Shown here: piece by piece, positions 13,637 to 35,159 of the stretch
How the letters are laid out: each line of letters opens with the position of its first letter
How positions within the stretch are numbered: the stretch's first letter is position 1
Sequence record: PZ019085.1
Length of the DNA: 64,000 bases
Reading direction: 5' to 3' (one strand)
Origin: a phage
The notes under the pieces: generated by a model
Told to the model about the DNA's origin: nothing
What the model saw: the letters and a program-made list of their open reading frames with translations, nothing else
The model's database searches: none
Made by a program: the position numbers and the translations under genes

Positions 13637-15606
13637 TGTGAAATAGGCTCCAAATCTATAGTTAAGTACTGAGGACGTAAGTCATTTTCGAATACGATTA
13701 AAGAACCATCCTTTGTAAAAATAATATCATCTGCAGGGTCTGAATAAAGTTCAATTGTTTGAACTTCAAAACGGTCTGAAGTGAGGTCAATTTTAGCAAT
13801 GTTCCAATAAATCGAATCGGCAGGATAATTCACTTCGCCAATTGAATAGTATTTGTTTCGTCCGTCAGTAACAGTAAGTTTATTAAAATCATTACCTGTA
13901 TAAGGTTGTATATTTTCGTTTTCAACAACATCACCGTCTGCAAATGGACCAATAATAACTTGACCTATGCCACGGTCATTACGGTCAGAAGATACTATGC
14001 GAACACCGTATTTAATAGTTTCGTTTGCATTTTCTGGATTAGGTCTGTGTGAATCAAACGAGAATATATTAGATTCCATCGATCTATCTTTAATCTGATT
14101 ATTGTATTTAATACCGGCCTCAGGCGTTTTATAGAAGTTTTGTACTTCGCGAACCATTTGAATAGTAGCTGAAGAACCAATAATAGAAATATCTGCATCA
14201 TCGACATAAGTTAGCATTTTAGATTTTGCAAACGATGAGTTAAAAATTTCTACATCTTCAATATAATATCGGTCAATTTTATTAATAATTTGCCCTTCAA
14301 GGTATTGCTCTGATTCTTGAAGCTTATTCAAAGCATATGTAACTTTGATATTCATTTTGATAAACAAATAATCAGGCGAAATAACAACAGGTGTAATAGT
14401 CCCTAAGTTATAATCATTCAAATAGTTTTTGATATCATCACGTTGGACAGAAGTCAAATACAATCCAGATTTAGGCTTAGCAGCAATATATGCGTACCCT
14501 GGTTTAGATGAATCTGTGAATGTTTGAACAGCTTGAATAATAGAACCAAACCGCTCAGAGACGAATGTATCATAATCTGAAGCGGTTACACAACGTTGTT
14601 GAGTTTCGCGTTTAATTGTGCCTAATTCGCGGATACGTTCAATATCTTCAGGGTCACCACCACCGTCTGCCCCAACAAAGTCTGGGTTATTGCTAGGGTT
14701 CTCGTTAATATCGATTACCGTGATATTAGCTAATGTATCAGCATAAGAAAATCCTACAGCACCGTTAGCATCTGCGCCATTAGTAGAAATATACTCAATT
14801 ACGATTTTAGAACCCTGAACAGGTTTAAGGCCACCAATATAGTTAGATGTTAACGCGCCTTCTGACGTGTTAATAGAGATTTCGCCTTCACCAAAATAAA
14901 ATTCGGTGTTCCCATCAACCGTTTCACGCATATAATAGATTGTTGATGTAGAATCAGCGTGAACCATCGACTTACGAGTCCAGTTAATCCATTCTGCTCC
15001 GTCAACATACAACTTAACCAAATTACGGTCAATATTCTTATCACGAATAATGATAGGTTTTAATTTATCAAATGTTAATTCAGTGCGAACAATACGTCCT
15101 TGAGCTAATCGAAGACGTGGAAAATATTGGTTATTTTTGTCTTTAACTACAATGACATCTTCAGTAGAAACAAAGTTATATGGGTTAACAGAAGTATCTT
15201 TAGCGTATGCTAAGAAACGAGTGCCACGTGGAATGGTGATATAGTTTCTATTTAACGCATCCGTACATGTGAGCATAATTTCTGTTTGTGCTGCTGATTT
15301 AGATGAAGGCAGATATCCATTATCTTGAGCCGCTTGTACAACAGAACTACGCAAGTTTGCAGTACGCATAAAACTTTCATACACTGCACTATTACTGAAC
15401 TGTTGGATGTAAAGAGTGTTATATGCTAAAAGGTCGCACAATACGTTTAAGCGTGAACCTTCAAAATCATAATCAAGAAATTCATTCTGTCCATGGAGCC
15501 ATTCAATAATGTTTTGTTTGATTTCGGCAAATGTGCCCCCGATAAAAATCTCGGGAATAGCATTCGCTGTTCGGGTTAATTGATAATTTACAGGAGTGTT
15601 TGCCAT
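13633..15606 (-). CDS. 6: baseplate wedge protein (T4 gp6-like)
   Basis: start set at internal ATG giving MANTPVNYQLTRTANAIPEIF..., matching the T4 gp6 N-terminus and avoiding overlap with 5.4; 657 aa. Confidence 0.9.
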   Translation of the reverse strand: MANTPVNYQLTRTANAIPEIFIGGTFAEIKQNIIEWLHGQNEFLDYDFEGSRLNVLCDLLAYNTLYIQQFSNSAVYESFMRTANLRSSVVQAAQDNGYLPSSKSAAQTEIMLTCTDALNRNYITIPRGTRFLAYAKDTSVNPYNFVSTEDVIVVKDKNNQYFPRLRLAQGRIVRTELTFDKLKPIIIRDKNIDRNLVKLYVDGAEWINWTRKSMVHADSTSTIYYMRETVDGNTEFYFGEGEISINTSEGALTSNYIGGLKPVQGSKIVIEYISTNGADANGAVGFSYADTLANITVIDINENPSNNPDFVGADGGGDPEDIERIRELGTIKRETQQRCVTASDYDTFVSERFGSIIQAVQTFTDSSKPGYAYIAAKPKSGLYLTSVQRDDIKNYLNDYNLGTITPVVISPDYLFIKMNIKVTYALNKLQESEQYLEGQIINKIDRYYIEDVEIFNSSFAKSKMLTYVDDADISIIGSSATIQMVREVQNFYKTPEAGIKYNNQIKDRSMESNIFSFDSHRPNPENANETIKYGVRIVSSDRNDRGIGQVIIGPFADGDVVENENIQPYTGNDFNKLTVTDGRNKYYSIGEVNYPADSIYWNIAKIDLTSDRFEVQTIELYSDPADDIIFTKDGSLIVFENDLRPQYLTIDLEPISQ

Positions 15607-21552: not shown

Positions 21553-22238
<686 letters not shown>

Positions 22239-22251
22239 TTTTCACAAAACG

Positions 22252-22290
22252 GTTTACATAAGGATGATGGTGTGTTACTATCATCCTATC
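22252..22290 (+). promoter_or_regulatory. early promoter with inverted repeat (PeSL-like cassette)
   Basis: GTTTAC -35-like hexamer then inverted repeat GGATGATGG...CTATCATCC around a -10-like TACTAT; upstream of the ipI-like gene. Confidence 0.5.
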
Positions 22291-22315: not shown

Positions 22316-22603
22316 ATGAAAACCTATAAAGAATTTATATCACCTGTTGCTAACGTTTCTACTCTGACCGAAGCAACCCTTACTTCTGAAGTTATTAAAA
22401 CAAATAAAGGACGTGAGGGTAAACCAATGATTAGTCTGGTTGACGGTGAAGAAGTAAAAGGTACTGTTTACTTAGGGGATGGATGGTCTGCTAAGAAAGA
22501 CGGCGCTACTATTGTTATCTCTCCGGCTGAAGAGACTGCATTGTTTAAAGCTAAGCATATTTCTGTAGCTCAGCTTAAAATTATTGCAAAAACTCTTCTG
22601 TAA
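22316..22603 (+). CDS. ipI: internal protein I-like (capsid targeting sequence protein)
   Basis: 95 aa starting MKTYKEFISPV, the T4 capsid-targeting-sequence motif (MKTYQEFIAE); ipI position next to 57B; length equals T4 IPI precursor. Confidence 0.7.
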   Translation: MKTYKEFISPVANVSTLTEATLTSEVIKTNKGREGKPMISLVDGEEVKGTVYLGDGWSAKKDGATIVISPAEETALFKAKHISVAQLKIIAKTLL

Positions 22604-22606
22604 GTA

Positions 22607-22645
22607 GTTTACAACACGATAGGACTATGTTATAGTAGTCCTATC
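22607..22645 (+). promoter_or_regulatory. early promoter with inverted repeat (PeSL-like cassette)
   Basis: GTTTAC then palindrome ATAGGACTAT-GTTA-TAGTAGTCCTAT then CAAATCAAATGAG; near-identical copies at 29368 and 30663. Confidence 0.55.
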
Positions 22646-22673
22646 AAATCAAATGAGTAAATGGAGAAATAAA

Positions 22674-22859
22674 ATGAAACGCGCTGAACTGATTCGTAAT
22701 GTTGCTGTAGTAATTGCTTCAATGGCTTTTAGTTTTTCGATGTTTGTAGGATTCATTTGTGGACTACTGACAACAACAGAAAATTCTATCTCATTGGTAG
22801 TAGCATTTCTAATCGGCTTAATCGCTATCGTTATGGATAAAATTGCAAAAGGTGAGTAA
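22674..22859 (+). CDS. small membrane protein, hypothetical
   Basis: 61 aa from ATG 22674 (SD GGAGAAA); hydrophobic core VAVVIASMAFSFSMFVGFICGLL; alternative start at 22653. Confidence 0.55.
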   Translation: MKRAELIRNVAVVIASMAFSFSMFVGFICGLLTTTENSISLVVAFLIGLIAIVMDKIAKGE

Positions 22860-22860
22860 A

Positions 22861-23223
22861 ATGAAATATCACGTATATGCTGATTTTGAAGCAAATCCTT
22901 CTAAAGACCCGGATTGTCGTTTATTCCGTAATCCGTTTGATTCAGCAGCTCAAGCATGGGCCTGGATTAAAACTTGTACTCCTTCTTACACTTTCTTTGA
23001 AGTGGTAGACGATAACGGAGTTCTGCATCCAGAACCTACAGAAACTATTAATTTCCTTCTGTTTGCTGGTTACGACTGTTATCCTCTTGGTGGTATTGAC
23101 GACCTTGTTGCTACAGGAAAAACTGTTGAGGTTCTTCGCGAAATTTATAAAAACGCAGAAGAAAATTTTGACTGGTATCATATTGTTGATGCTCATACCT
23201 TTGAAATGGTGGAACATTCATGA
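22861..23223 (+). CDS. hypothetical protein
   Basis: 120 aa from ATG 22861 (SD GGTGAG); no recognised family. Confidence 0.6.
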   Translation: MKYHVYADFEANPSKDPDCRLFRNPFDSAAQAWAWIKTCTPSYTFFEVVDDNGVLHPEPTETINFLLFAGYDCYPLGGIDDLVATGKTVEVLREIYKNAEENFDWYHIVDAHTFEMVEHS

Positions 23224-23510
23224 TTCTTTATGCTAAGGTAAAATCCGTTGAGAATGGATATGAAAGCGACCGAGCTGCAGCTAAAGCACTAGTCGATTAC
23301 CATGGTATTTTGACCCACTTTGAAGTTGAAAAGGTTTACGTCGACCGTTCATCTTCACAGGTTAAATTACTTTGGGAAGACCGCAAATTTAATAGTGTGA
23401 ACTTTGATTTCTTTATTGAAACAGAAAAAGGTCCTCTTGAATATGATATTTTCAAGAATCCTTTGAAATTACGTTGTATTGAATACAATTACATTAATAT
23501 GGTACGGTGA
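23220..23510 (+). CDS. hypothetical protein
   Basis: 96-aa ORF overlapping the upstream stop (ATGA); no recognised family. Confidence 0.6.
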   Translation: MILYAKVKSVENGYESDRAAAKALVDYHGILTHFEVEKVYVDRSSSQVKLLWEDRKFNSVNFDFFIETEKGPLEYDIFKNPLKLRCIEYNYINMVR

Positions 23511-23514
23511 GTAA

Positions 23515-24030
23515 ATGAATATTCGTTTAGGCAGTACAATTCCTAAGGGCTACGTAATTGATGTCACTACCTATGAAAATGATGGTGACAACTATAAAAC
23601 CAAAACATTGTTTGAAGTGGAAGAGCATGAGCTCCAACAGTTTAAATATCTCTTGAAGAAATTTAAGAGCCGTCATTCTAGCACCAAAGCCGAACGTTAT
23701 TGTGGTAATACACCATTCAGTGATTGCTCGCTTTTAATCTATGAATACTTGGTTGAAGGACTGTTCTCAGACCAGCTTTATCCAGAATTTATTAAAAAGG
23801 TCTTTGATATTGAAGTCGACCTCGGTAATAAATCTGAAGAAGATGAATCACGCGTATTCGACCTGTTCTTTGTGAAAGGCGATGAGATATCTCAAGGTCT
23901 TATTGATATTCTTGGCTACGCTTCTGAATACTATGATTACGATTTCTTGCGTGTAGTTGAACGTGTCGAATTTGCTTATATTGAAAAAGAAATTGTTTTG
24001 CCAACCGTTAAAATGGTTGATTTGCTTTAA
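23515..24030 (+). CDS. hypothetical protein
   Basis: 171-aa ORF, acidic; no recognised family. Confidence 0.6.
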   Translation: MNIRLGSTIPKGYVIDVTTYENDGDNYKTKTLFEVEEHELQQFKYLLKKFKSRHSSTKAERYCGNTPFSDCSLLIYEYLVEGLFSDQLYPEFIKKVFDIEVDLGNKSEEDESRVFDLFFVKGDEISQGLIDILGYASEYYDYDFLRVVERVEFAYIEKEIVLPTVKMVDLL

Positions 24031-24109
24031 GAATTATGTGTTATTATTAATTCATACCCTCTATTACCAAAGGTGCCCTAAAGTGCCTTTCATAATAGAA
24101 AGTTATTTA

Positions 24110-24184
24110 GGCCCTGTAGCTCAATGGGAGAGCTGTCAGCTCATAACTGATAGGTAGCTGGATCGAAACCAGCCAGGGTCACCA
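24110..24184 (+). tRNA. tRNA with CAU anticodon (Met or Ile2)
   Basis: hand-folded cloverleaf: acceptor GGCCCTG/CAGGGTC, D-arm GCTC-AATGGGA-GAGC, anticodon stem GTCAG/CTGAT with loop CTCATAA, T-arm GCTGG-ATCGAAA-CCAGC, encoded CCA. Confidence 0.75.
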
Positions 24185-24187
24185 ATC

Positions 24188-24264
<77 letters not shown>

Positions 24265-24282
24265 ACTTTAAGTGAGGAAAAT

Positions 24283-24627
24283 ATGAAAGGCAATGTTTAT
24301 CTGGTAGTTCATGATTTAACGTTTTATTTTAACGAACGTGAAACAGTTATTTCCGATAGGTTAATTAATTCGCTGTATCAGCATGCCGATTACATCTATG
24401 TTCAAAATGAATTTGGACATTGGAAGTTTCTTAAAAACCGTTCCGGGTTAACTAGTTTTGAATACTTTGACCGTAAAGACCTTTTAAACGAAATCCCATT
24501 GCAACATCGGTTCCAGAAACGCGAATCACTATACTATTGTCGTCATATACCAAATGCTGAATGTGCTAATGAAGCGATTAATCTATGGCGTCGGCGTCGA
24601 GAGCAAATTGATAATATGCCAAAATAA
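24283..24627 (+). CDS. hypothetical protein
   Basis: 114 aa from ATG 24283 (SD GAGGAAA), chosen because the longer ORF start lies inside tRNA-Arg. Confidence 0.55.
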   Translation: MKGNVYLVVHDLTFYFNERETVISDRLINSLYQHADYIYVQNEFGHWKFLKNRSGLTSFEYFDRKDLLNEIPLQHRFQKRESLYYCRHIPNAECANEAINLWRRRREQIDNMPK

Positions 24628-24931
24628 GAAGCCGGGTCGCTACCGGCAAGTCGTCGGACTGATGTTCCCTGAGTAAGGACTGGTCTTAATAAATCTTTAT
24701 GATTTGTTAATATCCCCTTACATCACAGCAGAAACGGCGCACAGAATTATCGATTCGAGGAAATATCTTTGCCGTAAGCCGAGTAGCGTTTTTGACGGAA
24801 CGTTCGGATATGGTCGAGATATGGCCTTTTAAAAATATTGAGTAGCGTCAACTGCTTAATAACCGGGTTCGAATCCCGGCGTTTCGTACAAACACTTGCC
24901 TTAGTAGGTGGAAACCCCGACAAGGTATATA
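24628..24931 (+). ncRNA. candidate structured non-coding RNA region
   Basis: about 300 nt with no ORF of 60 aa or more on either strand, downstream of the tRNAs; contains a tRNA T-arm-like CCGGG-TTCGAAT-CCCGG and a GCCGG hairpin; T4 encodes small stable RNAs next to its tRNA cluster. Confidence 0.3.
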
Positions 24932-24959
24932 GCCCCTTCCGAAAGGTTGGGGCTTTTTT
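24932..24959 (+). terminator. rho-independent terminator
   Basis: GCCCCTTCC-GAAA-GGTTGGGGC hairpin (two internal T:T mismatches) followed by TTTTTT. Confidence 0.65.
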
Positions 24960-24960
24960 G

Positions 24961-24968
24961 TATAAATA
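24961..24968 (+). promoter_or_regulatory. T4-type late promoter (TATAAATA)
   Basis: exact TATAAATA 35 nt upstream of the ATG at 25004, directly after the terminator. Confidence 0.6.
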
Positions 24969-25003
24969 TAGTAAACAATAAACCTACTTTCTAAGGACCA
25001 TCA

Positions 25004-25630
25004 ATGTATACTTTTAATGAATTTTTAGCCGAAACGGAAGTAATCACCGAAGCCGGTGTACGTATGACAAAAGAGAAATGGCAAGCTGCTTACGATGCTA
25101 TTTCTGGTACAAAAACTAGTACAGAGTTTTTCAAAAACGTTCAAGCCATGTATGGTATCGACACTTCCAGCCAAAAAGAATATTACAGAGCTTCTAAAGC
25201 ATTCAAAGATATTGTTAGTGGCGGTGTTTCTGCTAAATCGGGTTCGCCTAAAGTAAAACCTGCTCCTACCGTTCCTAAACCTGCGACCCCTAAAGCAATA
25301 GCAAAACCTGAGCCTAAGCCGGAAGTAAAAGCAACTCCTAAAGCTCCTGCTCTTAAGTTTGATACTTCTAGCCTGGAAAAAAAATATAAACAACTATCTT
25401 CGCTTGTTCGTGATATTGAATCCGATACATCTTCACTCGTTCGTGAATTCAACAGTCTTCGTAATGGCCAACATATCAACAACCTTGATACCCCAGACCT
25501 TTATCGTCTTTATTTGACTATCGAAGGTTTGAAGTATACTCAACCACTTCACGATGCGATTAAAGAAAAACTTCGTCAGGCAGGTCGTTTGGCTGCTGAC
25601 GCTGCTCAGTATGCAAAAACCCGTAAATAA
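25004..25630 (+). CDS. capsid-targeting-sequence protein with Lys/Pro-rich linker (candidate internal/injected protein)
   Basis: 208 aa; N-terminus MYTFNEFLAETE resembles the T4 CTS; central KPAPTVPKPATPKAIAKPEPKPEVKATPKAP linker; late promoter directly upstream. Confidence 0.6.
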   Translation: MYTFNEFLAETEVITEAGVRMTKEKWQAAYDAISGTKTSTEFFKNVQAMYGIDTSSQKEYYRASKAFKDIVSGGVSAKSGSPKVKPAPTVPKPATPKAIAKPEPKPEVKATPKAPALKFDTSSLEKKYKQLSSLVRDIESDTSSLVREFNSLRNGQHINNLDTPDLYRLYLTIEGLKYTQPLHDAIKEKLRQAGRLAADAAQYAKTRK

Positions 25631-25649
25631 TTAAGTTACAATCACTTAA

Positions 25650-25674
25650 GCCCCTTCCTATGGAAGGGGCTTTC
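25650..25674 (+). terminator. hairpin, possible terminator
   Basis: GCCCCTTCC...GGAAGGGGC perfect inverted repeat followed by TTTCGGG (weak U-run). Confidence 0.45.
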
Positions 25675-25708
25675 GGGCATCTAGGGCAGATAAATTTTTC
25701 ACAAAGTT

Positions 25709-25750
25709 GTTTACTTCTCCTTGAGGTATGATACTATAGACCTATCAAAA
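25709..25750 (+). promoter_or_regulatory. early promoter cassette (PeSL-like)
   Basis: GTTTAC...GATACTATAGACCTATCAAAACAAATGAGG upstream of the ATG at 25768. Confidence 0.5.
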
Positions 25751-25767
25751 CAAATGAGGAAAACATT

Positions 25768-26271
25768 ATGAGTCTTTATACTGAACTGAATAAAAAATCT
25801 GAAGAATCGCGTGACGTTGTTTTTAAAAATGTACAAAAGCGTATTTTGGAAAAGATGTATGATGCTGCATCTAAAGGTGAAAAATCATGCCGCTTTCCGA
25901 TGAGATGTTCTACAGATTTATGCTCAAATACTATTGAATGGTTAGAAAGCGAAGGTCTTACTGTAGAGAAAAACCCGGCGACTTCTATTGACGGTGAATC
26001 ATATATTAGTATTTCTTGGGATAAACCACAGGTTAATGAGAAAGACGGTGATTGGGTTGTGGATGTTAAGACTTCTGACGGTGGACGTTCTGTTGAAGTT
26101 TCAGCCGTAGTTAAAGGTACACATGGGCAAAATAGCTGGGGGTGTGGTGGTGAAGAAAAAGAAATTGTTCTTAGTGTGATTGCAAGGTCCACTAGCAATA
26201 AAATTGCCCAGAGCATCATCTATGCTGCGTGCATTGAAGCTGGAAAAATTTGCAAAATTAAAAATAAATGA
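25768..26271 (+). CDS. hypothetical protein
   Basis: 167-aa ORF; several Cys (CRFPMRCSTDLC, WGCGG); no recognised family. Confidence 0.6.
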   Translation: MSLYTELNKKSEESRDVVFKNVQKRILEKMYDAASKGEKSCRFPMRCSTDLCSNTIEWLESEGLTVEKNPATSIDGESYISISWDKPQVNEKDGDWVVDVKTSDGGRSVEVSAVVKGTHGQNSWGCGGEEKEIVLSVIARSTSNKIAQSIIYAACIEAGKICKIKNK

Positions 26272-26310
26272 TGTACAAACACCAAGGACGGTGTTACTAT
26301 AGACCTATCA
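26271..26310 (+). promoter_or_regulatory. early promoter cassette (PeSL-like)
   Basis: ATGTAC...GGTGTTACTATAGACCTATCAAATCAAATGAGAGG upstream of the ATG at 26333. Confidence 0.5.
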
Positions 26311-26332
26311 AATCAAATGAGAGGAAAATAAA

Positions 26333-26560
26333 ATGGCTAAAGTTAGTATTGATGTCGTTGATTATGAATACACCGAAGAAGTTATTCGCAACCGTCACCC
26401 TGAAGTTCGTATCGATTCAGTCCAAGATTCCAAGTTCTGGACAACTGAGCTTAATCTGAGTGGTCCTTATGAAGCCGTTAAGAAGTTCATGGTTGAAGAA
26501 TACTGTGAAGGCATGCACCCGGAAGACGCCGAGTTTTATGTCAATTTGATTAAAAAATAA
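26333..26560 (+). CDS. hypothetical protein
   Basis: 75-aa acidic ORF. Confidence 0.6.
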   Translation: MAKVSIDVVDYEYTEEVIRNRHPEVRIDSVQDSKFWTTELNLSGPYEAVKKFMVEEYCEGMHPEDAEFYVNLIKK

Positions 26561-26595
26561 TTTACAAACTCTTGAGAGCAGAGTATAATGCTCTC
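26561..26595 (+). promoter_or_regulatory. sigma70-like promoter inside an inverted repeat
   Basis: TTTACA, 17-bp spacer, TATAAT; palindrome GAGAGCAGAG-TATAAT-GCTCTC; near-identical copy at 56751-56792. Confidence 0.6.
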
Positions 26596-26606
26596 GTTGG
26601 ATAATA
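26565..26606 (+). repeat. 42-bp direct repeat, copy A
   Basis: CAAACTCTTGAGAGCAGAGTATAATGCTCTCGTTGGATAATAAA; 41/42 identical to 56751-56792. Confidence 0.8.
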
Positions 26607-26630
26607 AACCACCAATTGAAAGGTAATAAT

Positions 26631-27224
26631 ATGAACACACTGAAGAAACTTGTTGAATTCATCCGCACTAAACTGGGTACCGCTATGGCTAAAAATCTGA
26701 CTGTCGAAGAACAGTATAACGCAGCTGCAGATAAGTTGATTACCCAAATCAAAGAACTAAAAACGGCTTCTGTTAAATCTATTAATGAAGAAAAACGTAT
26801 TCGTGAACTTGTTAATGAAAAGAACAAACAAGCCGCTTCTAAGGAACGTGAAATTCGTAAGCTCCTGGCTGAAGGACAGGATGTTACCATGCATGCTAAG
26901 CTTGGTCTTCTGTATCGTCGAACTGCCGAACAACTTAATACAAAAGCTGACGGGTATGCCGCTATGCGAATTGAAATTGCTCGTAAGGTGGTTGAACTTG
27001 ACGATGCTCGTCAGAACCTGGCAATCAAACTCGAATACATTCGTGAAACTCGAGCAGCCAATGCCCTTGGTATCTCTACGGCTGATGATGTAATTGAAAT
27101 CGCTGCACTGACTAAGGTTGATATCGAAGACACTCTGACTCGTGTTGAAACGTTCAATGGCACTCCAGCTGGTGTCGAAACCACTTCTGCTGATGTACAA
27201 GAATATATTAACTCTTTGAAATAA
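26631..27224 (+). CDS. coiled-coil protein, hypothetical
   Basis: 197 aa from ATG 26631; largely helical, charged heptad-like sequence. Confidence 0.6.
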
Positions 27225-27232
27225 AATAATAC

Positions 27233-27254
27233 GGAGGACTCCGGTCCTCCTTTT
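27233..27254 (+). terminator. rho-independent terminator
   Basis: GGAGGAC-TCCG-GTCCTCC hairpin followed by TTTT. Confidence 0.6.
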
Positions 27255-27273
27255 GGATAATAAAGGAGTTAAC

Positions 27274-27870
27274 ATGCGAAACCAAAATAATGATATTGAC
27301 TCAATGTTCGAAGAGTTCCGAAATAAGGTAAATCCACCTACGTCTTTAGTTGATTCATTACGATATGTTGCAACTGGACGTAAATGGTACTGGTCGTCTT
27401 CTTATGAGACCACTGAATATGCAAATCGCCGAAAATCTTTATTAGCCCCAGGTATTATGATTCATGATATCGGAGCTATTGCTAAACTAGTTGCAGACCA
27501 TGATATTAGATTCACCGATTTCGTTGCTCCTACGTGGTCTGTTTGTTGTTTAAACACTGAATTGGAATATATCAGCGAACGCTCTGAAGATTATTATGGT
27601 TTTAGAGATAAGCTTCTGAGGTCTAATATGTTTTATATCGATACAGAAGTTCTAGTCGATAATAAAAAATATTACTTTACGTTAATCGTCGATTCTGAAA
27701 CTATGTATGAAGGCAAGCCCTTGCTTAAAAGAGTTGATGCTTTAAGTGCTATTGATGCGCTTTATGAAACCATGATTGTTAGTCCTAATTTCACTAACAA
27801 TTTAATCCTTGAGCAATTTATTATGGAATGTAGAGAATATGTCAAAGCCAACCCTGTACATGCCAATTAA
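27274..27870 (+). CDS. hypothetical protein
   Basis: 198 aa from ATG 27274 (SD AAAGGAG). Confidence 0.6.
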   Translation: MRNQNNDIDSMFEEFRNKVNPPTSLVDSLRYVATGRKWYWSSSYETTEYANRRKSLLAPGIMIHDIGAIAKLVADHDIRFTDFVAPTWSVCCLNTELEYISERSEDYYGFRDKLLRSNMFYIDTEVLVDNKKYYFTLIVDSETMYEGKPLLKRVDALSAIDALYETMIVSPNFTNNLILEQFIMECREYVKANPVHAN

Positions 27871-28234
27871 GCCCTGGGCATACGAATACAAACGTAAATT
27901 AATCCCAAACGAAGTACTATTTGGCCCTATTTTAGCTTTAGCATTTTTAATCTTTATGATTATAGGAGCTATTTTAGATTCCAATAAAGTTATATCGTCT
28001 GATGCAGCGTTTTCATTAATGTTCGTCGCACCACTTATTGTACCATTTTTATTAATGCCTATTAACTGGGTGGGATATTGGTACCAAGGCCGTCATCACA
28101 GAGCCCGATTAAGAGAATGGAAAGTTCAGTGCGCAAAAGCCCAAGCTCAGTATGATGAAGCTGTTAAAAAGTATGAATATGAAGAAGCTATGGAATTCGT
28201 TAAGGAAATAAGATGCAAAAGCCTCAGCTCTTAA
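27839..28234 (+). CDS. membrane protein, C-terminal EFVKEIRCK motif family
   Basis: 131 aa; two predicted TM helices; C-terminus EAMEFVKEIRCKSLSS related to the C-termini of ORFs 28213, 30721 and 31714; alternative start 27860. Confidence 0.55.
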   Translation: MSKPTLYMPIKPWAYEYKRKLIPNEVLFGPILALAFLIFMIIGAILDSNKVISSDAAFSLMFVAPLIVPFLLMPINWVGYWYQGRHHRARLREWKVQCAKAQAQYDEAVKKYEYEEAMEFVKEIRCKSLSS

Positions 28235-28572
28235 CCGTACGGCCTTCTCTTGGTGAGAACATTCTAATTTTTATTATGAGTATTGGCATGGGATTTGCCT
28301 TTGGATTAGTTGGATTTCTTATTGACGGCGTTGTGTTAGGATTTATAGGGAACACTGGTGGATTCACAGACCAATGGCAGGACTTACGGTATACCCAAGC
28401 CTTTGCATCCATCGCATCATTTTGTACTGTAGTCTATTTTTACTACGATTTTATAAACCATAACAAGAAAAATAAAAAGGTTTACGCTTCTCAAATGGTT
28501 AGTTATAATGAACTTCTAGCTAAACGTGAAAATGAAACAATCGAAAACTTTATTAAGGAATGTAGAAAATGA
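28213..28572 (+). CDS. membrane protein, C-terminal ENFIKECRK motif family
   Basis: 119 aa; TM helices FIMSIGMGFAFGLVGFLIDGVVLGFIG; C-terminus ...NETIENFIKECRK. Confidence 0.6.
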   Translation: MQKPQLLTVRPSLGENILIFIMSIGMGFAFGLVGFLIDGVVLGFIGNTGGFTDQWQDLRYTQAFASIASFCTVVYFYYDFINHNKKNKKVYASQMVSYNELLAKRENETIENFIKECRK

Positions 28573-28874
28573 GTAAGATTATTGAAATTAAAGTACCAGA
28601 GTTTAATGATGCCAAATCCGCTTCAGATGCAATTTATAAACTTCTGAATCAAGCTGAACGTATCGAAGAAGAAGCAACAAAGATCGCAGACCAATATGCC
28701 GTATCATTTTCTGTAGGTGATTATGGTAGCGGTCGTACTTATTATCCTAAGGGTGAAATCGTATCCCAGTGGATGAAAAATGAAATTGAAAATAATGGTG
28801 GCGATGTTAAGCGTGAAGGTAATGGTTACGTTATTACTGAAGGTGCTTGGGTTTCGTCTTCTGCGTTGTGCTAA
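28569..28874 (+). CDS. small protein, GWVSSSxxC paralog 1
   Basis: 101 aa ending ...EGAWVSSSALC; shares GDYGSGRTYYPKGE-like motif and C-terminus with the next two ORFs. Confidence 0.6.
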   Translation: MSKIIEIKVPEFNDAKSASDAIYKLLNQAERIEEEATKIADQYAVSFSVGDYGSGRTYYPKGEIVSQWMKNEIENNGGDVKREGNGYVITEGAWVSSSALC

Positions 28875-28883
28875 GGAATCATT

Positions 28884-29156
28884 ATGTCTAAAGAACAAAC
28901 CGAACTGGCCGAAGCTGTAGCAAAAATCTATGCAGCTATTGAGGCTGCCAAAGAAATTGCTGATAAACAAAACACAACATTCGATTTGTATCCAGCTTAT
29001 GGTATGGGTGGAACCTATCATTCACCCGGACAGCTTAAAGCCGATCTTGAACGTTGTACAAAAAACGGCTATGCTGAATGGGCCGACGTTTACCAATACG
29101 ACTACAACCTGAGCCTTGAAGATGGCGGTTGGGTTGCATCTTCTCACACTTGCTAA
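28884..29156 (+). CDS. small protein, GWVSSSxxC paralog 2
   Basis: 90 aa ending ...DGGWVASSHTC; internal YGMGGTYHSPGQ. Confidence 0.6.
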   Translation: MSKEQTELAEAVAKIYAAIEAAKEIADKQNTTFDLYPAYGMGGTYHSPGQLKADLERCTKNGYAEWADVYQYDYNLSLEDGGWVASSHTC

Positions 29157-29165
29157 GGAAACAAT

Positions 29166-29363
29166 ATGTCTCGTGAATTAGATTGTGCTGTACGTACCGC
29201 AGTAGCTGCCCTGGAAAACCTGTTCCAAATTGCAACAGAAGAACGCGAAGAAGTTACATTGTGGATTGAAGATAACGCAGGTCTGAATCTCCAGAACGCG
29301 ATCTCATTATCCAACAATAGTATCACTGTTCAAGGCTGGGTATCATCTAGTTATTCTTGCTAA
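29166..29363 (+). CDS. small protein, GWVSSSxxC paralog 3
   Basis: 65 aa ending ...VQGWVSSSYSC. Confidence 0.55.
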   Translation: MSRELDCAVRTAVAALENLFQIATEEREEVTLWIEDNAGLNLQNAISLSNNSITVQGWVSSSYSC

Positions 29364-29367
29364 AACA

Positions 29368-29406
29368 GTTTACAACAAGATAGGGCTATGTTATAGTAGT
29401 CCTATC
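29368..29406 (+). promoter_or_regulatory. early promoter with inverted repeat (PeSL-like cassette)
   Basis: GTTTACAACAAGATAGGGCTATGTTATAGTAGTCCTATC; about 90% identical to the copy at 22607. Confidence 0.55.
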
Positions 29407-29425
29407 AAATTAAACGGAGTCCACA

Positions 29426-29665
29426 ATGATTTATTACGAAAGTATTGGAACCGAAGTGGTTGCTAAAACCATTACTCGTGAAAAGTTTGCAAAGATATTC
29501 GATATGCGTTATAAAAAATCTGAACACAAAGGCATCCGATTTGAAGATGCACACTGCACAATTTGCCCTTATAATGAAGACATAAACGGTACAATCGTTC
29601 CATTGGTAGAGGCTTCACATGATGACCTCTGGGATGAATATGATATCGCATGTCGTGAAATTTAA
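29426..29665 (+). CDS. hypothetical protein
   Basis: 79-aa ORF; Cys/His pair ...HCTICPYNED... Confidence 0.55.
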   Translation: MIYYESIGTEVVAKTITREKFAKIFDMRYKKSEHKGIRFEDAHCTICPYNEDINGTIVPLVEASHDDLWDEYDIACREI

Positions 29666-29693
29666 GTTAATGAATTAATCCGAGGAAAATATT

Positions 29694-30650
29694 ATGATGT
29701 TAGTTATTGGTTCTCGTGCACTTCACTATCATGGTCTTATTGATTCTAGCGCTATCAAAAATAGCGATTGGGACTTTATTGCGGACCAAGGTTCTTGGAA
29801 TGCATTCAAAAATCAAATGATGGGTGTATATGTTCACCAAGATAACCCTGATGTCCAAGTTTTCAAATGCTTCCATAATGGACGCGAAACTCATTTTGAA
29901 GCATATATTGTTCCGGCAATCACTAATGTCCGTGAATTAGTCGGTGAACTCACTCCTGAAGATTTCACGTCTTCTTATGACCTTTTAAAATACGCCAAGA
30001 AAAATTTGACTAAAGATCGTTTGACCGGGTTTTACTGGGCAACTCCTGAGATATGTCTTGCAATTAAAATGTCTCATCGTTTCAAGAAAAATAATCCATT
30101 CTTTTTAAAGACTATGAACCATATTCAGTATCTTCGTGGTAAAGGTGTTACACTGAACGATGAACTTACTGAAATTATGCTGAAACGCCAGAAAGAAACC
30201 TTGAATTATGCTCACCCAGTTCTTGACACTTCTAAAAGTGCGTTCTTTAAAGATGACATCTATACATATGACCATGATACTATTCATGAAGCCATTGCAC
30301 TAACAGACCGCCCAGCGTATACATTTTATATGAAAGATGGTTCTGAAGTCATGACCTCACGCGAGAAGTTCGAATCATTACCGGAAATGGTCAAATTGGC
30401 CGGTGTATACGAAGAATCATGTGTACTAGCGTTAGAACGTTCTCAGATTCCTAATGACTTTAAAATTAACCCTGAAGCCAGTTTTATGATGGCATTGGAA
30501 AAAGTCTGTACAAGCATCACCTCTGGTTGGTTCCGTGAATACGCCTGGGAAAACTACAGCAAAGTAGTAAGTATGTACCAAAGCTTAGGACATGATGATT
30601 ACGTTAAACGTTTCAAACAAAATTTCCATATGGTAAAACCTTTCAAATAA
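29694..30650 (+). CDS. putative nucleotidyltransferase-fold protein
   Basis: 318 aa; N-terminal hhhGS...x14...SDWDF (MMLVIGSRALHYHG...NSDWDFIA) resembles the Pol-beta superfamily GS / DxD active-site pattern; remainder helical. Confidence 0.5.
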   Translation: MMLVIGSRALHYHGLIDSSAIKNSDWDFIADQGSWNAFKNQMMGVYVHQDNPDVQVFKCFHNGRETHFEAYIVPAITNVRELVGELTPEDFTSSYDLLKYAKKNLTKDRLTGFYWATPEICLAIKMSHRFKKNNPFFLKTMNHIQYLRGKGVTLNDELTEIMLKRQKETLNYAHPVLDTSKSAFFKDDIYTYDHDTIHEAIALTDRPAYTFYMKDGSEVMTSREKFESLPEMVKLAGVYEESCVLALERSQIPNDFKINPEASFMMALEKVCTSITSGWFREYAWENYSKVVSMYQSLGHDDYVKRFKQNFHMVKPFK

Positions 30651-30662
30651 TTTCGCAAAACT

Positions 30663-30700
30663 GTTTACACAATTATAGGACTATGTTATAGTAGTCCTAT
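30663..30700 (+). promoter_or_regulatory. early promoter with inverted repeat (PeSL-like cassette)
   Basis: GTTTACACAATTATAGGACTATGTTATAGTAGTCCTAT. Confidence 0.55.
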
Positions 30701-30720
30701 TAAAACATGAGGAGAATATT

Positions 30721-31026
30721 ATGAAATTAACAGAAACCAATCTAATCGGTCTTTTAACAATATTTGCATCACCTTTTTACGCAGCCCTTTCTGTTGCAGT
30801 ATTACAAAAGGCTTACGATATGGATGGTGTTCCTGGTTTTGTATTCTTATCACCATTTTTATTATTCGTCGGAGCATTGTTATTATATGCCACGACTAGT
30901 TTCGACCATAACGTCTGGGTCAATTATAAATGCAAATTGTCTGAAGAAGAACACGCAGAAGCTCGTAAAAAAGCTATTGAATCTACCAATCTAGAAAATT
31001 TCATTAAAGAATGTCGAGGAAAATAA
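30721..31026 (+). CDS. membrane protein, C-terminal ENFIKECRGK motif family
   Basis: 101 aa; two TM helices; C-terminus ...ESTNLENFIKECRGK. Confidence 0.6.
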   Translation: MKLTETNLIGLLTIFASPFYAALSVAVLQKAYDMDGVPGFVFLSPFLLFVGALLLYATTSFDHNVWVNYKCKLSEEEHAEARKKAIESTNLENFIKECRGK

Positions 31027-31027
31027 T

Positions 31028-31714
31028 ATGAATAGTTCTAAAGTGTTTAATAGCCAAGCTCGTGCAGTAGGTGGTTTTGCTGGTAAAATTTCTAATGATA
31101 AAATCAAAAACGAAACTATGTTCTTCAACAGCTCATTGGCTTTCGCTTTTGATAATGGTGGCCCAATTACTCGTAGCTTCATCATGAACTTGCCGGATGA
31201 TTGGAACACTGACCAGGTTGTATTTGATTCACGAGTCCACATGCTGATGCCTGGTTGGTATCCTGCTATTCCTGGATATCACCATGATGACGTACCACGT
31301 CCTGATATTCCAGTTGGTCAACACTTTATTACTGCAGGACAACCTGATTATGACAATCCTCGTTACCATTCTGAACATATTCTTGGTCTTGTTAACGCTG
31401 ATGTGTGTCCTACTCATTTTGCAACAGGAACTGCAGAGTTCAGTCAGATTCCTGATGGCGAACTTATCTATCGTCAGTGGCACAAAGAAGTCCTCGAAAA
31501 AATTGAAAAAGGTGAACTAGAGAAATGGGAAGCTCCAGATCGTACTCTTCTTCAGTTTGATTGGCAAACATGGCACACTGGTTCTCGTGCAATTAGTAAT
31601 GGATGGCGTTGGTTCGGACGTGTATCTCGTAATACAGACCGAGTTAAAAAGATTACCAATGAAATTCGTGTCAATGCCCAAGTTTATCTGGAATTCCCTA
31701 TGGAAGGCTGGTAA
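31028..31714 (+). CDS. hypothetical protein with His/Asp-rich motifs
   Basis: 228 aa; GWYPAIPGYHHDD and CPTHFATG motifs, Trp-rich C-terminus; no family recognised. Confidence 0.6.
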   Translation: MNSSKVFNSQARAVGGFAGKISNDKIKNETMFFNSSLAFAFDNGGPITRSFIMNLPDDWNTDQVVFDSRVHMLMPGWYPAIPGYHHDDVPRPDIPVGQHFITAGQPDYDNPRYHSEHILGLVNADVCPTHFATGTAEFSQIPDGELIYRQWHKEVLEKIEKGELEKWEAPDRTLLQFDWQTWHTGSRAISNGWRWFGRVSRNTDRVKKITNEIRVNAQVYLEFPMEGW

Positions 31715-32205
31715 TGATTAACAAAACATATTGGTCTAATATAGACGATGACAATGAAGGTATTTCATACTATTCAGTAGATTGGACAGGATGTCCATCC
31801 TACTTAGTGAAAAATATTTGCCAAGAATTTAAAATCGACCAGCCAGCAGGTATTATCGTGAACAGATACATTAATGGATATCAACCTATCGATGAAGTAA
31901 TACGAACAACTCAAGCTGAGCTTGAAAAGTTTTTCAATAAGTGCCAATGGATAACAGGATGGATTATATTTGTACCGTCTATATGGTTTTTCAGCACTAA
32001 GGTGAGTTCTTTCGGTTTTGTTGATATTATTGCTATCTTATTAGCATCTAGTATCATAAGTGTTGTTGGTGGCATCATTGGTGGCGGTACTGCAGCCATC
32101 ATTATTAATCTTGTTAAAAGTAGTTTACAGGAACGTAAAGACAAGATAAAGGCCAAGAATAATGAAGTTGAACGTTTTATTACCGAATGCAGGAATTTGA
32201 GATGA
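31714..32205 (+). CDS. membrane protein, C-terminal ERFITECR motif family
   Basis: 163 aa; TM segments WIIFVPSIWFF and IIAILLASSIISVVGGIIGGGTAAIII; C-terminus ...NNEVERFITECRNLR. Confidence 0.6.
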   Translation: MINKTYWSNIDDDNEGISYYSVDWTGCPSYLVKNICQEFKIDQPAGIIVNRYINGYQPIDEVIRTTQAELEKFFNKCQWITGWIIFVPSIWFFSTKVSSFGFVDIIAILLASSIISVVGGIIGGGTAAIIINLVKSSLQERKDKIKAKNNEVERFITECRNLR

Positions 32206-32438
32206 GTATAGCAATTTACATTAAATCAGAATCATGTGATTCTTATCTGTATTCCTATGATACCGGAACGTCAGAAGAGAAAATCAAAGAAGATTTAGAA
32301 AGCGACTTGGATATGTTCCGACCTATTTCTGATTATATGGTCCAAATATCTGATAGTGAAAGTCCGTCAACAGAAACATGTGTTGAACTTATTATACAAG
32401 ATATCTTTAAACAATCATGGGACCGAGATGATGAGTAA
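32202..32438 (+). CDS. hypothetical acidic protein
   Basis: 78 aa from ATG 32202 (SD AGGA); overlaps the nudE start; alternative start 32187. Confidence 0.5.
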   Translation: MSIAIYIKSESCDSYLYSYDTGTSEEKIKEDLESDLDMFRPISDYMVQISDSESPSTETCVELIIQDIFKQSWDRDDE

Positions 32439-32886
32439 GAAAAATAAAGTGAAAGAACTATCAGCCGGTATTATTTTCCTTACCGAAGATAAAGAATTAT
32501 TCATGGGGCGTGTAACTGGTTCTCGTCCTAAAGGTTCTTTAGCTCATCGGTGGGATATTCCTAAAGGTCGTGTCGAGCCCGGTGAATCTCCTATCGAAGC
32601 CGCTATTCGTGAATGCGAAGAAGAAACTGGGTTTACACAATATGACCCTGCCTTCCTGAAAGACCTAGGTGAACATCATTACTCAGACAATAAGAATATT
32701 CATCTGTTCCTATATACCATCCCTGTAGAGCACGAGCAATTCAGAAACAGTGTTTGTAATTCCTATCATACATTCCCAGACGGACGACAGATTCCTGAAT
32801 TTGATGCATTCGCTTTAATTAAACCTTCTCAATGGGAGTATGTAATGGGCAAATCATTATATAAGGTGCTCACTACCCTCCTATAA
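32428..32886 (+). CDS. nudE: Nudix hydrolase (T4 NudE / e.1-like)
   Basis: 152 aa from MMSKK; Nudix box GRVEPGESPIEAAIRECEEETGF; immediately upstream of e as in T4. Confidence 0.85.
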   Translation: MMSKKNKVKELSAGIIFLTEDKELFMGRVTGSRPKGSLAHRWDIPKGRVEPGESPIEAAIRECEEETGFTQYDPAFLKDLGEHHYSDNKNIHLFLYTIPVEHEQFRNSVCNSYHTFPDGRQIPEFDAFALIKPSQWEYVMGKSLYKVLTTLL

Positions 32887-32895
32887 GTAATAAAT

Positions 32896-32917
32896 ACCTC
32901 CTATAAACGTGGGAGGT
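32896..32917 (+). promoter_or_regulatory. SD-sequestering hairpin with late-promoter-like octamer in the loop, upstream of e
   Basis: ACCTCC-TATAAACGTG-GGAGGT: the 3' arm contains the lysozyme SD GGAGG; loop holds TATAAACG (6/8 match to TATAAATA); T4 gene e is known to be controlled this way. Confidence 0.45.
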
Positions 32918-32920
32918 ATT

Positions 32921-33409
32921 ATGAATATATTTGAAATGCTTCGTAATGACGAAGGTCTTAGACTGTCTTTATACAAAGACACTGAAGGCTTTTGGACGAT
33001 TGGCATAGGCCATTTAGTAACAAAGAACCCGTCTTTAGCCGTAGCTAAAGCTGAACTTGACAGAATGATCGGACGTAAATGCAACGGTACAATTACCCTT
33101 GATGAGGCTGAAAAGCTATTTAATGAAGACGTTGATAAAGCCGTTCGCGGAATCTTGGGTAATGCTAAACTTAAACCGGTATATGATTCTTTAGATGCGG
33201 TTCGTCGATGTGCATTGGTCAATATGGTCTTCCAAATGGGTGTAGCAGGCGTCGCTGGTTTTACTAATTCTCTTCGTATGCTTCAGCAGAAACGTTGGGA
33301 TGAAGCGGCAGTAAATCTAGCCCAATCTAAATGGTATCGTCAGACACCTAATCGCGCGAAACGCGTAATCTCAACATTTAAAACAGGAACTTGGAAAGCG
33401 TATATATGA
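32921..33409 (+). CDS. e: endolysin (T4 lysozyme)
   Basis: 162 aa [32 protein letters not shown]...; close match to T4 lysozyme incl. catalytic E11, D20, T26 context. Confidence 0.95.
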
Positions 33410-33687
33410 AAACATATAGTGAATTTTTATCAGAATCTATTCTTAACGAAGCTACTGACACATTTGCAACTAAGCTAGGTGCAGCTTTGGTTGAAGCTGA
33501 AAGTCTATTAGCACGTATTTCTGAACTTGCTAGTAAGATAGATACTCGCAAATTTGAACGTACCAGCGATATCGTTAAGCTTGAAGCATTGTTGCGTATG
33601 TGCGATAAACCGGAAGAAATCGCTAAGAATGGCTCGCTAATGAAACAACGTCTTGAAAAATATATTTCAGGCGCTTCAGAAAAATAG
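33406..33687 (+). CDS. internal protein-like (capsid targeting sequence protein)
   Basis: 93 aa [16 protein letters not shown]...; CTS-like N-terminus; ATGA overlap with e stop; position of ipIII/ipII in T4. Confidence 0.65.
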
Positions 33688-33688
33688 T

Positions 33689-33725
33689 GTTTACTTCCTC
33701 CAAGGACTTTGATACTATACATTCA
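33689..33725 (+). promoter_or_regulatory. early promoter cassette
   Basis: GTTTAC...GATACTATAC upstream of denV. Confidence 0.5.
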
Positions 33726-33745
33726 TCAACTACTTGGAGGAAATT

Positions 33746-34159
33746 ATGACCCGTATCAATTTAACACTTGTTTCTGAACTGACCGACCAACATCTTATGG
33801 CAGAGTATCGTGAATTACCACGCGTATTTGGTGCAGTCCGTAAACATGTTCAAAACGGTAAACGTGTAAAGGATTTTAAAATCTCTCCAACATTTATCTT
33901 AGGCACAGGTCACGTAACATTCTTTTACGACAAACTCGAATTTTTACGTTTACGTCAAATCGAGCTAATCGCTGAATGCTTGAAACGTGGTTTCAAAATC
34001 AAGGACACGACTGTCCAGGATATTTCCGACATCCCTGCCGAATTTCGTAATAATTATGTCCCGTCCGAAGCGTCCATTGCGATAAGTCAAGCTCGCTTAG
34101 ATGAAAAAATTGCTCAACGTCCTACTTGGTACAAATACTATGGTAAATCAATTTACTAA
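33746..34159 (+). CDS. denV: endonuclease V (pyrimidine dimer DNA glycosylase)
   Basis: 137 aa [35 protein letters not shown]...; near-collinear with T4 DenV as recalled. Confidence 0.95.
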
Positions 34160-34165
34160 GGAAAA

Positions 34166-34426
34166 ATGAAAATGTATCAAGAATTTATCGCTGAAGCAGA
34201 TGACAAAGGTCCTAAATTTAAAGTTAAAGCTTTCATTGGTGATGCGGAAGACTTTGGCTCATTAAAACGTAATGGGTATTTTTTCTTAGGTGGCGATGGT
34301 AAAGAAATCAACACCTATGCAAAACGTAGTGAAATTGCTTATGTTGTAGCAAGCCCTAAAGTAGATGTTGACGATATTGGATACGATTTTAACAACTTCG
34401 GAATTATTTCTGGCGGTAAAGCTTAA
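34166..34426 (+). CDS. internal protein-like (capsid targeting sequence protein)
   Basis: 86 aa MKMYQEFIAEADDKG...; CTS motif. Confidence 0.65.
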   Translation: MKMYQEFIAEADDKGPKFKVKAFIGDAEDFGSLKRNGYFFLGGDGKEINTYAKRSEIAYVVASPKVDVDDIGYDFNNFGIISGGKA

Positions 34427-34429
34427 ACG

Positions 34430-34459
34430 GTTTACGCTTAAGTATTAATATAGTATAAT
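34430..34459 (+). promoter_or_regulatory. sigma70-like early promoter
   Basis: GTTTAC, 18-bp spacer, TATAAT. Confidence 0.55.
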
Positions 34460-34489
34460 TACTCTATCAAAACAAACAAGGAAACAAAA

Positions 34490-34804
34490 ATGAAAACGTA
34501 TAAAGAATTTATTGCAGAATCCGCCAACCAACGCGTTGAAGGTGGTTATATTTGGATTGAACAAGTTGAGCCGCCGAGCCGCACTTCTACAGGTAAATGG
34601 AAAATTACTGTTGATGGTCCTGGCGGTAAACGTAGGACTCTTAAAGAAATTAACGGGTACTATGAAGAAGCTCTTTCGGATGCAGGAACTTACATGATGC
34701 AAATCATGATTAAAAACCCTGAAAACCGTTTTGCAGCTAAAGTCTTCCGCCGTATTGGTAATAAACTTTATGATGCATACTCTAAAAACTTCCCTAAAGA
34801 ATAA
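34490..34804 (+). CDS. internal protein-like (capsid targeting sequence protein)
   Basis: 104 aa MKTYKEFIAESANQRVEGG...; CTS motif. Confidence 0.65.
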   Translation: MKTYKEFIAESANQRVEGGYIWIEQVEPPSRTSTGKWKITVDGPGGKRRTLKEINGYYEEALSDAGTYMMQIMIKNPENRFAAKVFRRIGNKLYDAYSKNFPKE

Positions 34805-34829
34805 CATAAATTAAAACAATAGGAACAAA

Positions 34830-35159
34830 ATGAAAACATATCAAGAGTTTATCACTGAAGTTACATTATCTGCGGAACAGAAAGCTGCTATCGAAGAAGG
34901 TAAAAATCCCAAAGTAACATATAAAGTAAATAGTAAAGGCGTTTTTGATGACTTGGTTCAAGACCCTGAATTGAAAAAGGCTCTTTCTAAAACTAATGCG
35001 TACTTTGCTCCTAAATTTAACACAGCCGGTGTACTTATTGGATTGGATGTATTCAACTCTAAAGGTGTTCTATCTAATGCCTTTGGTTATGCCGCTAACA
35101 AAATTACCAAAGCCGCATGGGAATCCAATACTAAACAAGCTCAAAAGCCTAGAGTATAA
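34830..35159 (+). CDS. internal protein-like (capsid targeting sequence protein)
   Basis: 109 aa MKTYQEFITEVTLSAEQ...; CTS motif. Confidence 0.65.
   Translation: MKTYQEFITEVTLSAEQKAAIEEGKNPKVTYKVNSKGVFDDLVQDPELKKALSKTNAYFAPKFNTAGVLIGLDVFNSKGVLSNAFGYAANKITKAAWESNTKQAQKPRV

Follow-up and report, generated by a model that had tools for sequence, protein, structure and literature searches.

The 64,000-nucleotide stretch of phage DNA in record PZ019085.1 (the window, meaning the whole stretch at that length) contains six genes, named here by their first positions 22316, 25004, 33406, 34166, 34490 and 34830, that very probably encode T4-type internal proteins (IPs): small proteins that would be packaged into the head, trimmed by the prohead protease gp21 and injected into the host, where five of them would most likely block type IV nucleases. 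The case is built on the leaders and cleavage motifs of the six proteins, the orthology of two of them to the known internal proteins IPI and Ip10, synteny with T4, and a deletion in a relative whose junction lies in the leader. Both the observation and its interpretation restate established T-even biology. T-even internal proteins have been described as highly diverse defence proteins with only the capsid-targeting sequence (CTS) in common (Rao and Black, PMC3012670), descriptions of varied sets of packaged, injected proteins in T4 relatives go back to 1994, and internal-protein names have already been given to four of the six genes. Three additions, each modest, are made here: the recognition of a third locus, where 25004 (phrog_2280) represents a leader-bearing family that is conserved and transcribed late, the assignment of 34830 as an unannotated member of the Ip10 PHROG, and the leader-junction deletion in phage Mizar.

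Six open reading frames share a T4-type capsid-targeting leader

A search of the six-frame translation of the whole 64-kb window with the pattern M..[YF].EF[ILV] returned six matches, each at the start of one of the six open reading frames (ORFs), which all lie on the + strand and have the start M-x-x-[YF]-x-E-F-[IL] in common. Shuffled controls gave a mean of 0.07 matches (nucleotide shuffling) or 0.105 matches (residue shuffling), with a maximum of 1, and a looser leader pattern revealed no additional candidates within the window. The N-termini quoted in a preliminary description of this DNA were exact on the + strand, with six matches against about 0.1 expected.

The T4 capsid-targeting sequence has been defined by experiment, and the leaders found here match it. 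The first 10 residues of T4 IPIII suffice to bring proteins, foreign ones included, into the prohead core; targeting is reported to depend on leader positions 4 and 7 and processing on positions 8 and 10, and gp21 cleaves after L/I-X-E (PMC9026906). The targeting residues Y/F4 and F7 were kept in all six proteins. Comparison with the gp21 consensus, which the preliminary description had proposed as a check, placed the motif at residue 10 (I/L8-x-E10) in five of the six. The exception was the IPI orthologue, which has I8 but P10 and uses L17-T-E19 instead, like T4 IPI. Synonymous codons varied at conserved leader residues (Thr3 ACC/ACT/ACA/ACG; Ile8 ATA/ATC/ATT; Glu6 GAA/GAG), which argues that these residues are under peptide rather than RNA constraint. 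A Shine-Dalgarno sequence of the AAGGA/AGGAA type was present 5' of five of the six ORFs, and the start codon of 33406 shares the sequence ATGA with the stop codon of the lysozyme gene e.

The segment was 95-97% identical over its full length to many Mosigvirus genomes (the RB69/JS09/APCEc01/mar005P1 group), and on this sequence evidence the phage is a Mosigvirus of the RB69/JS09 type. Its gene order is that of T4 reversed, running from gene 1 through 57A, 57B, ipI, tRNA.4-tRNA.2 and the tRNAs to nudE, e, denV and vs.8. Five of the six genes (22316, 33406, 34166, 34490 and 34830) are held by the two known polymorphic IP loci, 57B-ipI-tRNA.4 and e-denV-vs.8.

The gene at 22316 is an orthologue of T4 ipI

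The ORF at 22316-22603 (+, 95 amino acids (aa), N-terminus MKTYKEFISPV) occupies the position of T4 ipI, after 57B. Its product was 87% identical to T4 IPI over 95 aa by BLASTP and matched the Pfam family IPI_T4 (PF11634) over residues 20-95 (E 5.7e-50; 167.7 bits compared with a curated cut-off of 25). By these sequence comparisons 22316 is an IPI orthologue. The leader, MKTYKEFISPVANVSTLTE, has a predicted cut after E19 that would yield a 76-aa mature protein like IPI*. Residues 20-95 aligned with the solved structure of mature IPI* (PDB 2JUB, E 2e-41), so that cleavage after L-T-E19 would leave exactly the span aligned to it. Orthology indicates that the protein most likely blocks a GmrSD-type type IV restriction enzyme.

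The gene directly 5' of ipI is 57B (21783-22238, +), which in phage Mizar carries an annotation as Acb1, an anti-CBASS nuclease; if that annotation holds, two counter-defence genes would be adjacent here.

Four cassettes occupy the e-denV-vs.8 locus

The ORF at 33406-33687 (+, 93 aa; RB69ORF127c family, phrog_3499) lies between e and denV, in the slot of T4 ipIII/ipII. Three more are found in tandem between denV and vs.8: 34166-34426 (+, 86 aa, N-terminus MKMYQEFIAEA; RB69p125 family, phrog_2667), 34490-34804 (+, 104 aa, N-terminus MKTYKEFIAES; phrog_3966) and 34830-35159 (+, 109 aa, N-terminus MKTYQEFITEV; RB69ORF123c family, phrog_3966), position 35159 being the end of the stop codon of the last. 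The predicted cuts in the tandem three follow E10, leaving A, S and V, respectively, as the new first residue. In 33406 the E10 cut is followed by SILNE and then A, with a second cut predicted after E15.

The families of 33406 and 34166 are labelled internal head protein in PHROGs, UniRef and RefSeq, and both proteins still matched their families when the leader was removed (mature 34166 versus phrog_2667, E 1e-11). The 34490 protein was 95% identical over 97 columns to Ip10 of phage Pol (CAA84455), a sequence deposited with a 1994 study of IP polymorphism, and falls in the same 90% cluster; by sequence it is an Ip10 homologue. The 34830 protein is annotated as hypothetical everywhere. Without their leaders, 34490 and 34830 both belonged to phrog_3966 (E 2e-28 and 3e-23, respectively), and each mature part has an isoelectric point (pI) of 9.6.

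We also examined whether the mature parts are unrelated to each other, as the preliminary description had put it. BLASTP among the six proteins found similarity confined to the leader, apart from a leader-anchored alignment of 34490 and 34830 (34% identity, 73 columns, E 1.8e-4). Unrelatedness is largely the right description of the set, with this pair falling in one remote-homology family. The two were considered as clear paralogues; that assignment is weakened, since they have a common PHROG without leaders but direct BLASTP of mature 34490 against mature 34830 was not significant. A Pfam scan of the six proteins recovered IPI only, with sub-threshold noise (CsgH, SIX1_SD) for the others, and a PDB sequence search with 25004, 34490 and 34830 gave chance-level matches only, IPI alone having matched (2JUB).

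A conserved leader-bearing family lies at a third locus

The ORF at 25004-25630 (+, 208 aa, N-terminus MYTFNEFLAETE) lies outside both IP loci, between homologues of the T4 stable RNAs rnaC and rnaD and the e.8-side genes. The rnaD (86% identity) and rnaC (98.6%) homologues occupy 24624-24888 (+), in an ORF-poor gap before 25004, and no Rfam family reached the gathering score in this interval. The leader reads MYTFNEFLAE/TEVITE/AG, where slashes mark the gp21 cuts predicted after E10 and E16. It departs from the canonical form at K2Y and Y4F; F4 is also found in T4 IPI.

A match to 25004 was identified in 139 phage records, and the product is called hypothetical in all 25 that were listed and in all named cluster members. 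Homologues in Dhakavirus and other T-even relatives carry the canonical leader MKTYNEFLNES..(L/I)xEAG, and those that are about 33% identical begin with MLNFKEFITES...ITEAG (Karamvirus) or MLKFKDILTES (Marfavirus). An exact T4-type late promoter, TATAAATA, is located at 24961..24968 (+), 43 nucleotides (nt) 5' of 25004 and after a GC hairpin and T-run. The Karamvirus homologue has TATAAATA 35 nt 5' of its start, and in the Marfavirus homologue a hairpin is followed by CATAAATA. Across genera, the family thus appears from these sequences to keep its leader, its cleavage motif and late expression.

The mature 25004 protein would have a mass of about 21 kDa and a pI of about 9.7. An AlphaFold model built from a 9-sequence alignment (mean pLDDT, the predicted local distance difference test, 69.9) predicted two helical domains separated by a disordered Pro/Ala/Lys-rich linker, which in the model is reminiscent of histone H1 tails. 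Foldseek searches with this model returned nothing below E 1 in PDB and only the protein's own family in BFVD, that is, no informative fold match.

In RB69 the 25004 slot contains ORF149c (146 aa, MKTYAEFLTEA; RB69 13429-13991, -), which overlaps ORF148c. The idea that ORF149c is an unrelated cassette was rejected, as profile comparison with the 25004 family gave a probability of 91% (E 9e-7) over an alignment that includes the leader, and identified it as a divergent relative of 25004, possibly disrupted. ORF149c/ORF148c looks like one gene split by a frameshift or sequencing error.

Two matches to the T4 early-type promoter were also noted beside IP genes: TTTACA-17-TACTAT at 22253-22281 (+), before ipI, and TTTACG-17-TATAAT at 34431-34459 (+), before 34490. 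A sigma-70 promoter scan gave 51 matches compared with 41.7 ± 6.5 in shuffles and hence no enrichment, so these early-type promoters are only suggestive. The IP cassettes may be transcribed at different times, given the late promoter of 25004.

The leader region is a junction of cassette loss

A 46-nt Shine-Dalgarno-plus-leader repeat occurs in three in-register copies (34150-34195, 34474-34519 and 34814-34859, all +), spaced 324 and 340 nt apart and 74-76% identical, and heads the three tandem IP cassettes. Neither 34166 nor 34490 is present in phage Mizar, where the segment 34166-34829 is absent (at Mizar 14088). Mizar follows the window as far as the ribosome-binding site of 34166 and resumes at the first codons of 34830, and the junction falls in the shared AAAATGAAAA at the leader start. 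This deletion provides direct evidence for cassette loss mediated by the leader region. The leader-coding DNA that heads each cassette would, on this basis, serve as a recombination point for cassette loss or exchange; shuffling of this kind was reportedly proposed by Repoila et al. in 1994.

Mizar also carries an extra leader-bearing ORF just after ipI (MKTYKEFINEAAAPKTF, 102 aa) that is absent from the window; in RB69 a member of this ORF's family precedes ipI.

The repertoire is typical of relatives and part of a larger class

To place the six genes in context, we compared them with the same genomic interval of related phages. RB69 has 7 leader-bearing ORFs, mar005P1 6 and Mizar 5, compared with 6 in the window, and the Dhakavirus AnYang has 5 in the e-denV-vs.8 locus alone. 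T4 has three, as the preliminary description stated and as holds for the syntenic T4 segment. The description of the set as expanded is therefore correct relative to T4 but not relative to closer phages, among which 5-7 is typical. The repertoire is a typical Mosigvirus set illustrating an established principle, and the scientific gain from it is small. Related phages are reported to encode at least 10 Ips (PMC12373910).

A scan of IMG/VR with a degenerate leader DNA pattern returned at least 120 stretches. These contained at least 177 distinct leader-bearing ORFs in at least about 75 mature-part families, with up to four tandem matches per locus among the matches listed. Mature parts ranged from about 50 to about 600 aa among the matches listed, and the pattern hit many metagenomic viral contigs.

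Comparison with known packaged and injected proteins

The window and T4 have in common the leader (MKTYQEFIAE in IPII/IPIII, MKTFKEF... in IPI), the L/I-x-E logic and two genomic loci. They differ in that the window has no orthologue of IPII or IPIII, and its five other mature parts resemble the T4 proteins only in the leader; when the six proteins were compared with T4 IPII and IPIII by BLASTP, either only the first ~11-26 residues aligned or the matches were weak, non-significant patches. The placement of cassettes also differs, with three downstream of denV here, whereas the two of T4 are upstream of denV. The Ip4-Ip10 proteins of T4-related phages (Repoila et al. 1994, EMBO J 13:4181, as cited in PMC3012670 and PMC12373910) follow the same concept of polymorphic IP loci with varied ORFs that have only the leader in common. 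In contrast to the two loci described in the IP-polymorphism papers, 25004 lies outside both. Bas37_0260 is a further parallel: it is an IP-locus gene whose product has only the N-terminal packaging signal in common with Ip1-3, and an anti-type IV role has been demonstrated for it.

Parallels exist beyond T4-like phages. The Dar proteins of phage P1, which belongs to another phage family, are injected along with the DNA; they are larger, are not known to use a T4-type leader and act against type I restriction, not type IV. They are likewise packaged in the head and linked to its morphogenesis, and their name refers to defence against restriction (PMC12810830). The ejection proteins of the giant phages SPN3US and phiKZ are also head-internal, in some cases cleaved by the prohead protease during maturation, and delivered into the host cell (PMC7411985, PMC10052503). 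They differ in forming part of a large (>40 MDa) internal protein mass in a head of about 50 proteins, and the abstracts of the two papers gave no sign of a short, shared MKTYxEF leader.

Proposed mechanism and alternative explanations

In the proposed pathway, the N-terminal CTS of about 10 residues would bind each precursor to the scaffolding core, which would build it into the prohead. The prohead protease gp21 would then cut after L/I-x-E, at E10 in five proteins, probably also at E15 in 33406 and E16 in 25004, and at E19 in the IPI orthologue. The freed small mature proteins would remain in the head with the DNA, be injected together with it and act before any phage gene is expressed. For the 33406, 34166, 34490 (Ip10) and 34830 proteins, the most likely targets would be other modification-dependent (type IV) nucleases, with a narrow specificity for each protein. 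The 25004 protein is probably packaged like the others; its conservation, basicity and late expression mean that it may have a different role, as an internal protein associated with the DNA. We infer packaging, cleavage, injection and targets for this phage from its sequence, except that for IPI they follow by orthology. We place high confidence in the packaging, trimming and injection of five of the proteins and moderate confidence in those of 25004.

Published work supports an anti-defence role. In T4, Ip1, Ip2 and Ip3 were each shown to inhibit a single, different GmrSD type IV enzyme and to give no cross-protection; the same authors expect the remaining IP loci to act similarly (Silas et al. 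2025, PMC12373910). Bas37_0260, encoded at the ipI locus, inhibits McrBC (bioRxiv 10.1101/2025.11.20.689424). Mosigvirus DNA contains arabinosylated cytosines and is cut by the GmrSD-family enzyme BrxU (PMC13390438), so the same selective pressure would be expected on this phage. Since injected internal proteins act before phage gene expression, they would help decide which strains a T4-like phage infects, and the repertoire would therefore be useful for host-range prediction and the choice of therapeutic phages.

Several points weigh against this reading. Known targets exist for only four leader-bearing proteins, so the function of the five other than IPI is proposed by analogy. Further internal L/I-x-E sites (at 30 and 40 in 33406, 53 in 34490 and 188 in 25004) make the final mature products uncertain. 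The literature searched yielded no Mosigvirus virion proteome and nothing usable on the virion proteomics of phages with 25004 homologues (e.g. fHe-Yen9-01). From T4 gene order, genes 21 (protease) and 22 (scaffold) are expected outside the window. Their presence is assumed from their core-gene status (PMC9026906). Mature 34166 is acidic (pI 5.2), compared with the basic T4 IPs of PMC9026906. Finally, conservation of the 25004 family extends from Mosigvirus to Dhakavirus, Karamvirus, Marfavirus and a Yersinia phage, which is not the pattern of a fast-swapping anti-defence cassette. The preliminary suggestion of an injected anti-defence arsenal is supported by the leader, the cleavage motif, the IP loci, the identities with IPI and Ip10 and the published paradigm, with the reservation that 25004 may be no arms-race effector.

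We considered whether the shared N-terminus could be a feature of the DNA only, either a translation-initiation region or a recombination boundary of cassettes, with cytoplasmic proteins that are neither packaged nor cleaved. The 46-nt repeats are indeed similar as DNA, and the leader start is the junction of the natural deletion in Mizar. However, different synonymous codons are used at the conserved residues, and the conserved positions are those reported for T4 targeting and processing, in a leader whose 10 residues alone were reported to bring foreign proteins into heads (PMC9026906). In addition, the IPI of this phage shares 87% identity with T4 IPI, whose packaging and cleavage at this site are known, and the leader is kept across at least about 75 otherwise unrelated families in IMG/VR. 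Taken together, these data make a purely nucleotide-level explanation highly improbable.

Instead of anti-defence, some of the six, 25004 above all, could have a structural role inside the head or one in association with the DNA (assembly of the head, condensation of the DNA or its ejection), as was suggested for T4 IPIII in morphogenesis. Consistent with such a role, 25004 is served by an exact late promoter of its own, which a distant homologue retains, and in several genera its family occupies the same site next to the tRNA/rnaC-rnaD cluster. The predicted size, basicity and modelled linker between two helical domains would also suit such a role, and head-assembly aberrations occur in T4 IPIII and IP0 mutants (PMC9026906). 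However, IPIII is itself a GmrSD inhibitor (PMC12373910), so that size, basicity and a morphogenetic phenotype are compatible with an anti-defence role. In T4, the syntenic segment lacks a leader-bearing ORF at the 25004 slot, which indicates that the family is dispensable for T4-type heads, and the RB69 copy, ORF149c, is divergent and truncated-looking. On balance we regard a structural or DNA-associated role for some of the six as possible, though less likely than not. We hold equally tentatively that phrog_2280 is an unrecognised capsid-targeted family at a third IP locus whose members are DNA-associated or ejection proteins of the head interior and not swappable anti-restriction cassettes.

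The small cassettes could also be injected effectors directed at targets other than type IV restriction, such as other early defences or host take-over. The five non-IPI mature parts are unlike Ip1, Ip2 and Ip3 beyond the leader and matched no Pfam family or solved structure (33406 and 34166 were compared with Pfam only), and T4 also packages Alt, an ADP-ribosyltransferase whose substrate is host RNA polymerase (PMC9026906). In contrast, type IV restriction is what each of the four leader-bearing IPs of known target inhibits (PMC12373910; bioRxiv 10.1101/2025.11.20.689424), the rest of the IP loci are expected to do likewise by the authors of PMC12373910, and the hypermodified DNA of Mosigvirus is a substrate for a GmrSD-family enzyme (PMC13390438). 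Other targets are thus rather unlikely, and inhibition of type IV nucleases remains the preferred reading for these cassettes.

Other tagged genes in the same region

Two further groups of ORFs between 25004 and 33406 were noted. Three tandem and otherwise dissimilar ORFs at 28569-28874, 28884-29156 and 29166-29363 (+; 101, 90 and 65 aa), hypothetical in relatives, have the C-terminus G-x-W-V-[S/A]-S-S-x-x-C-stop in common (WVSSSALC, WVASSHTC and WVSSSYSC). Four ORFs at 27809-28234, 28213-28572, 30721-31026 and 31714-32205 (+) end in a common C-terminal tail (ENFIKECRK, ENFIKECRGK, ERFITECRNLR and EFVKEIRCKSLSS, respectively); three of them resemble e.4, e.3 and e.2 and are predicted membrane proteins, and for the fourth two transmembrane domains are predicted in Mizar. 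These tail-bearing ORFs (27809-32205) are a second case in this region of a common terminal tag on differing protein bodies.

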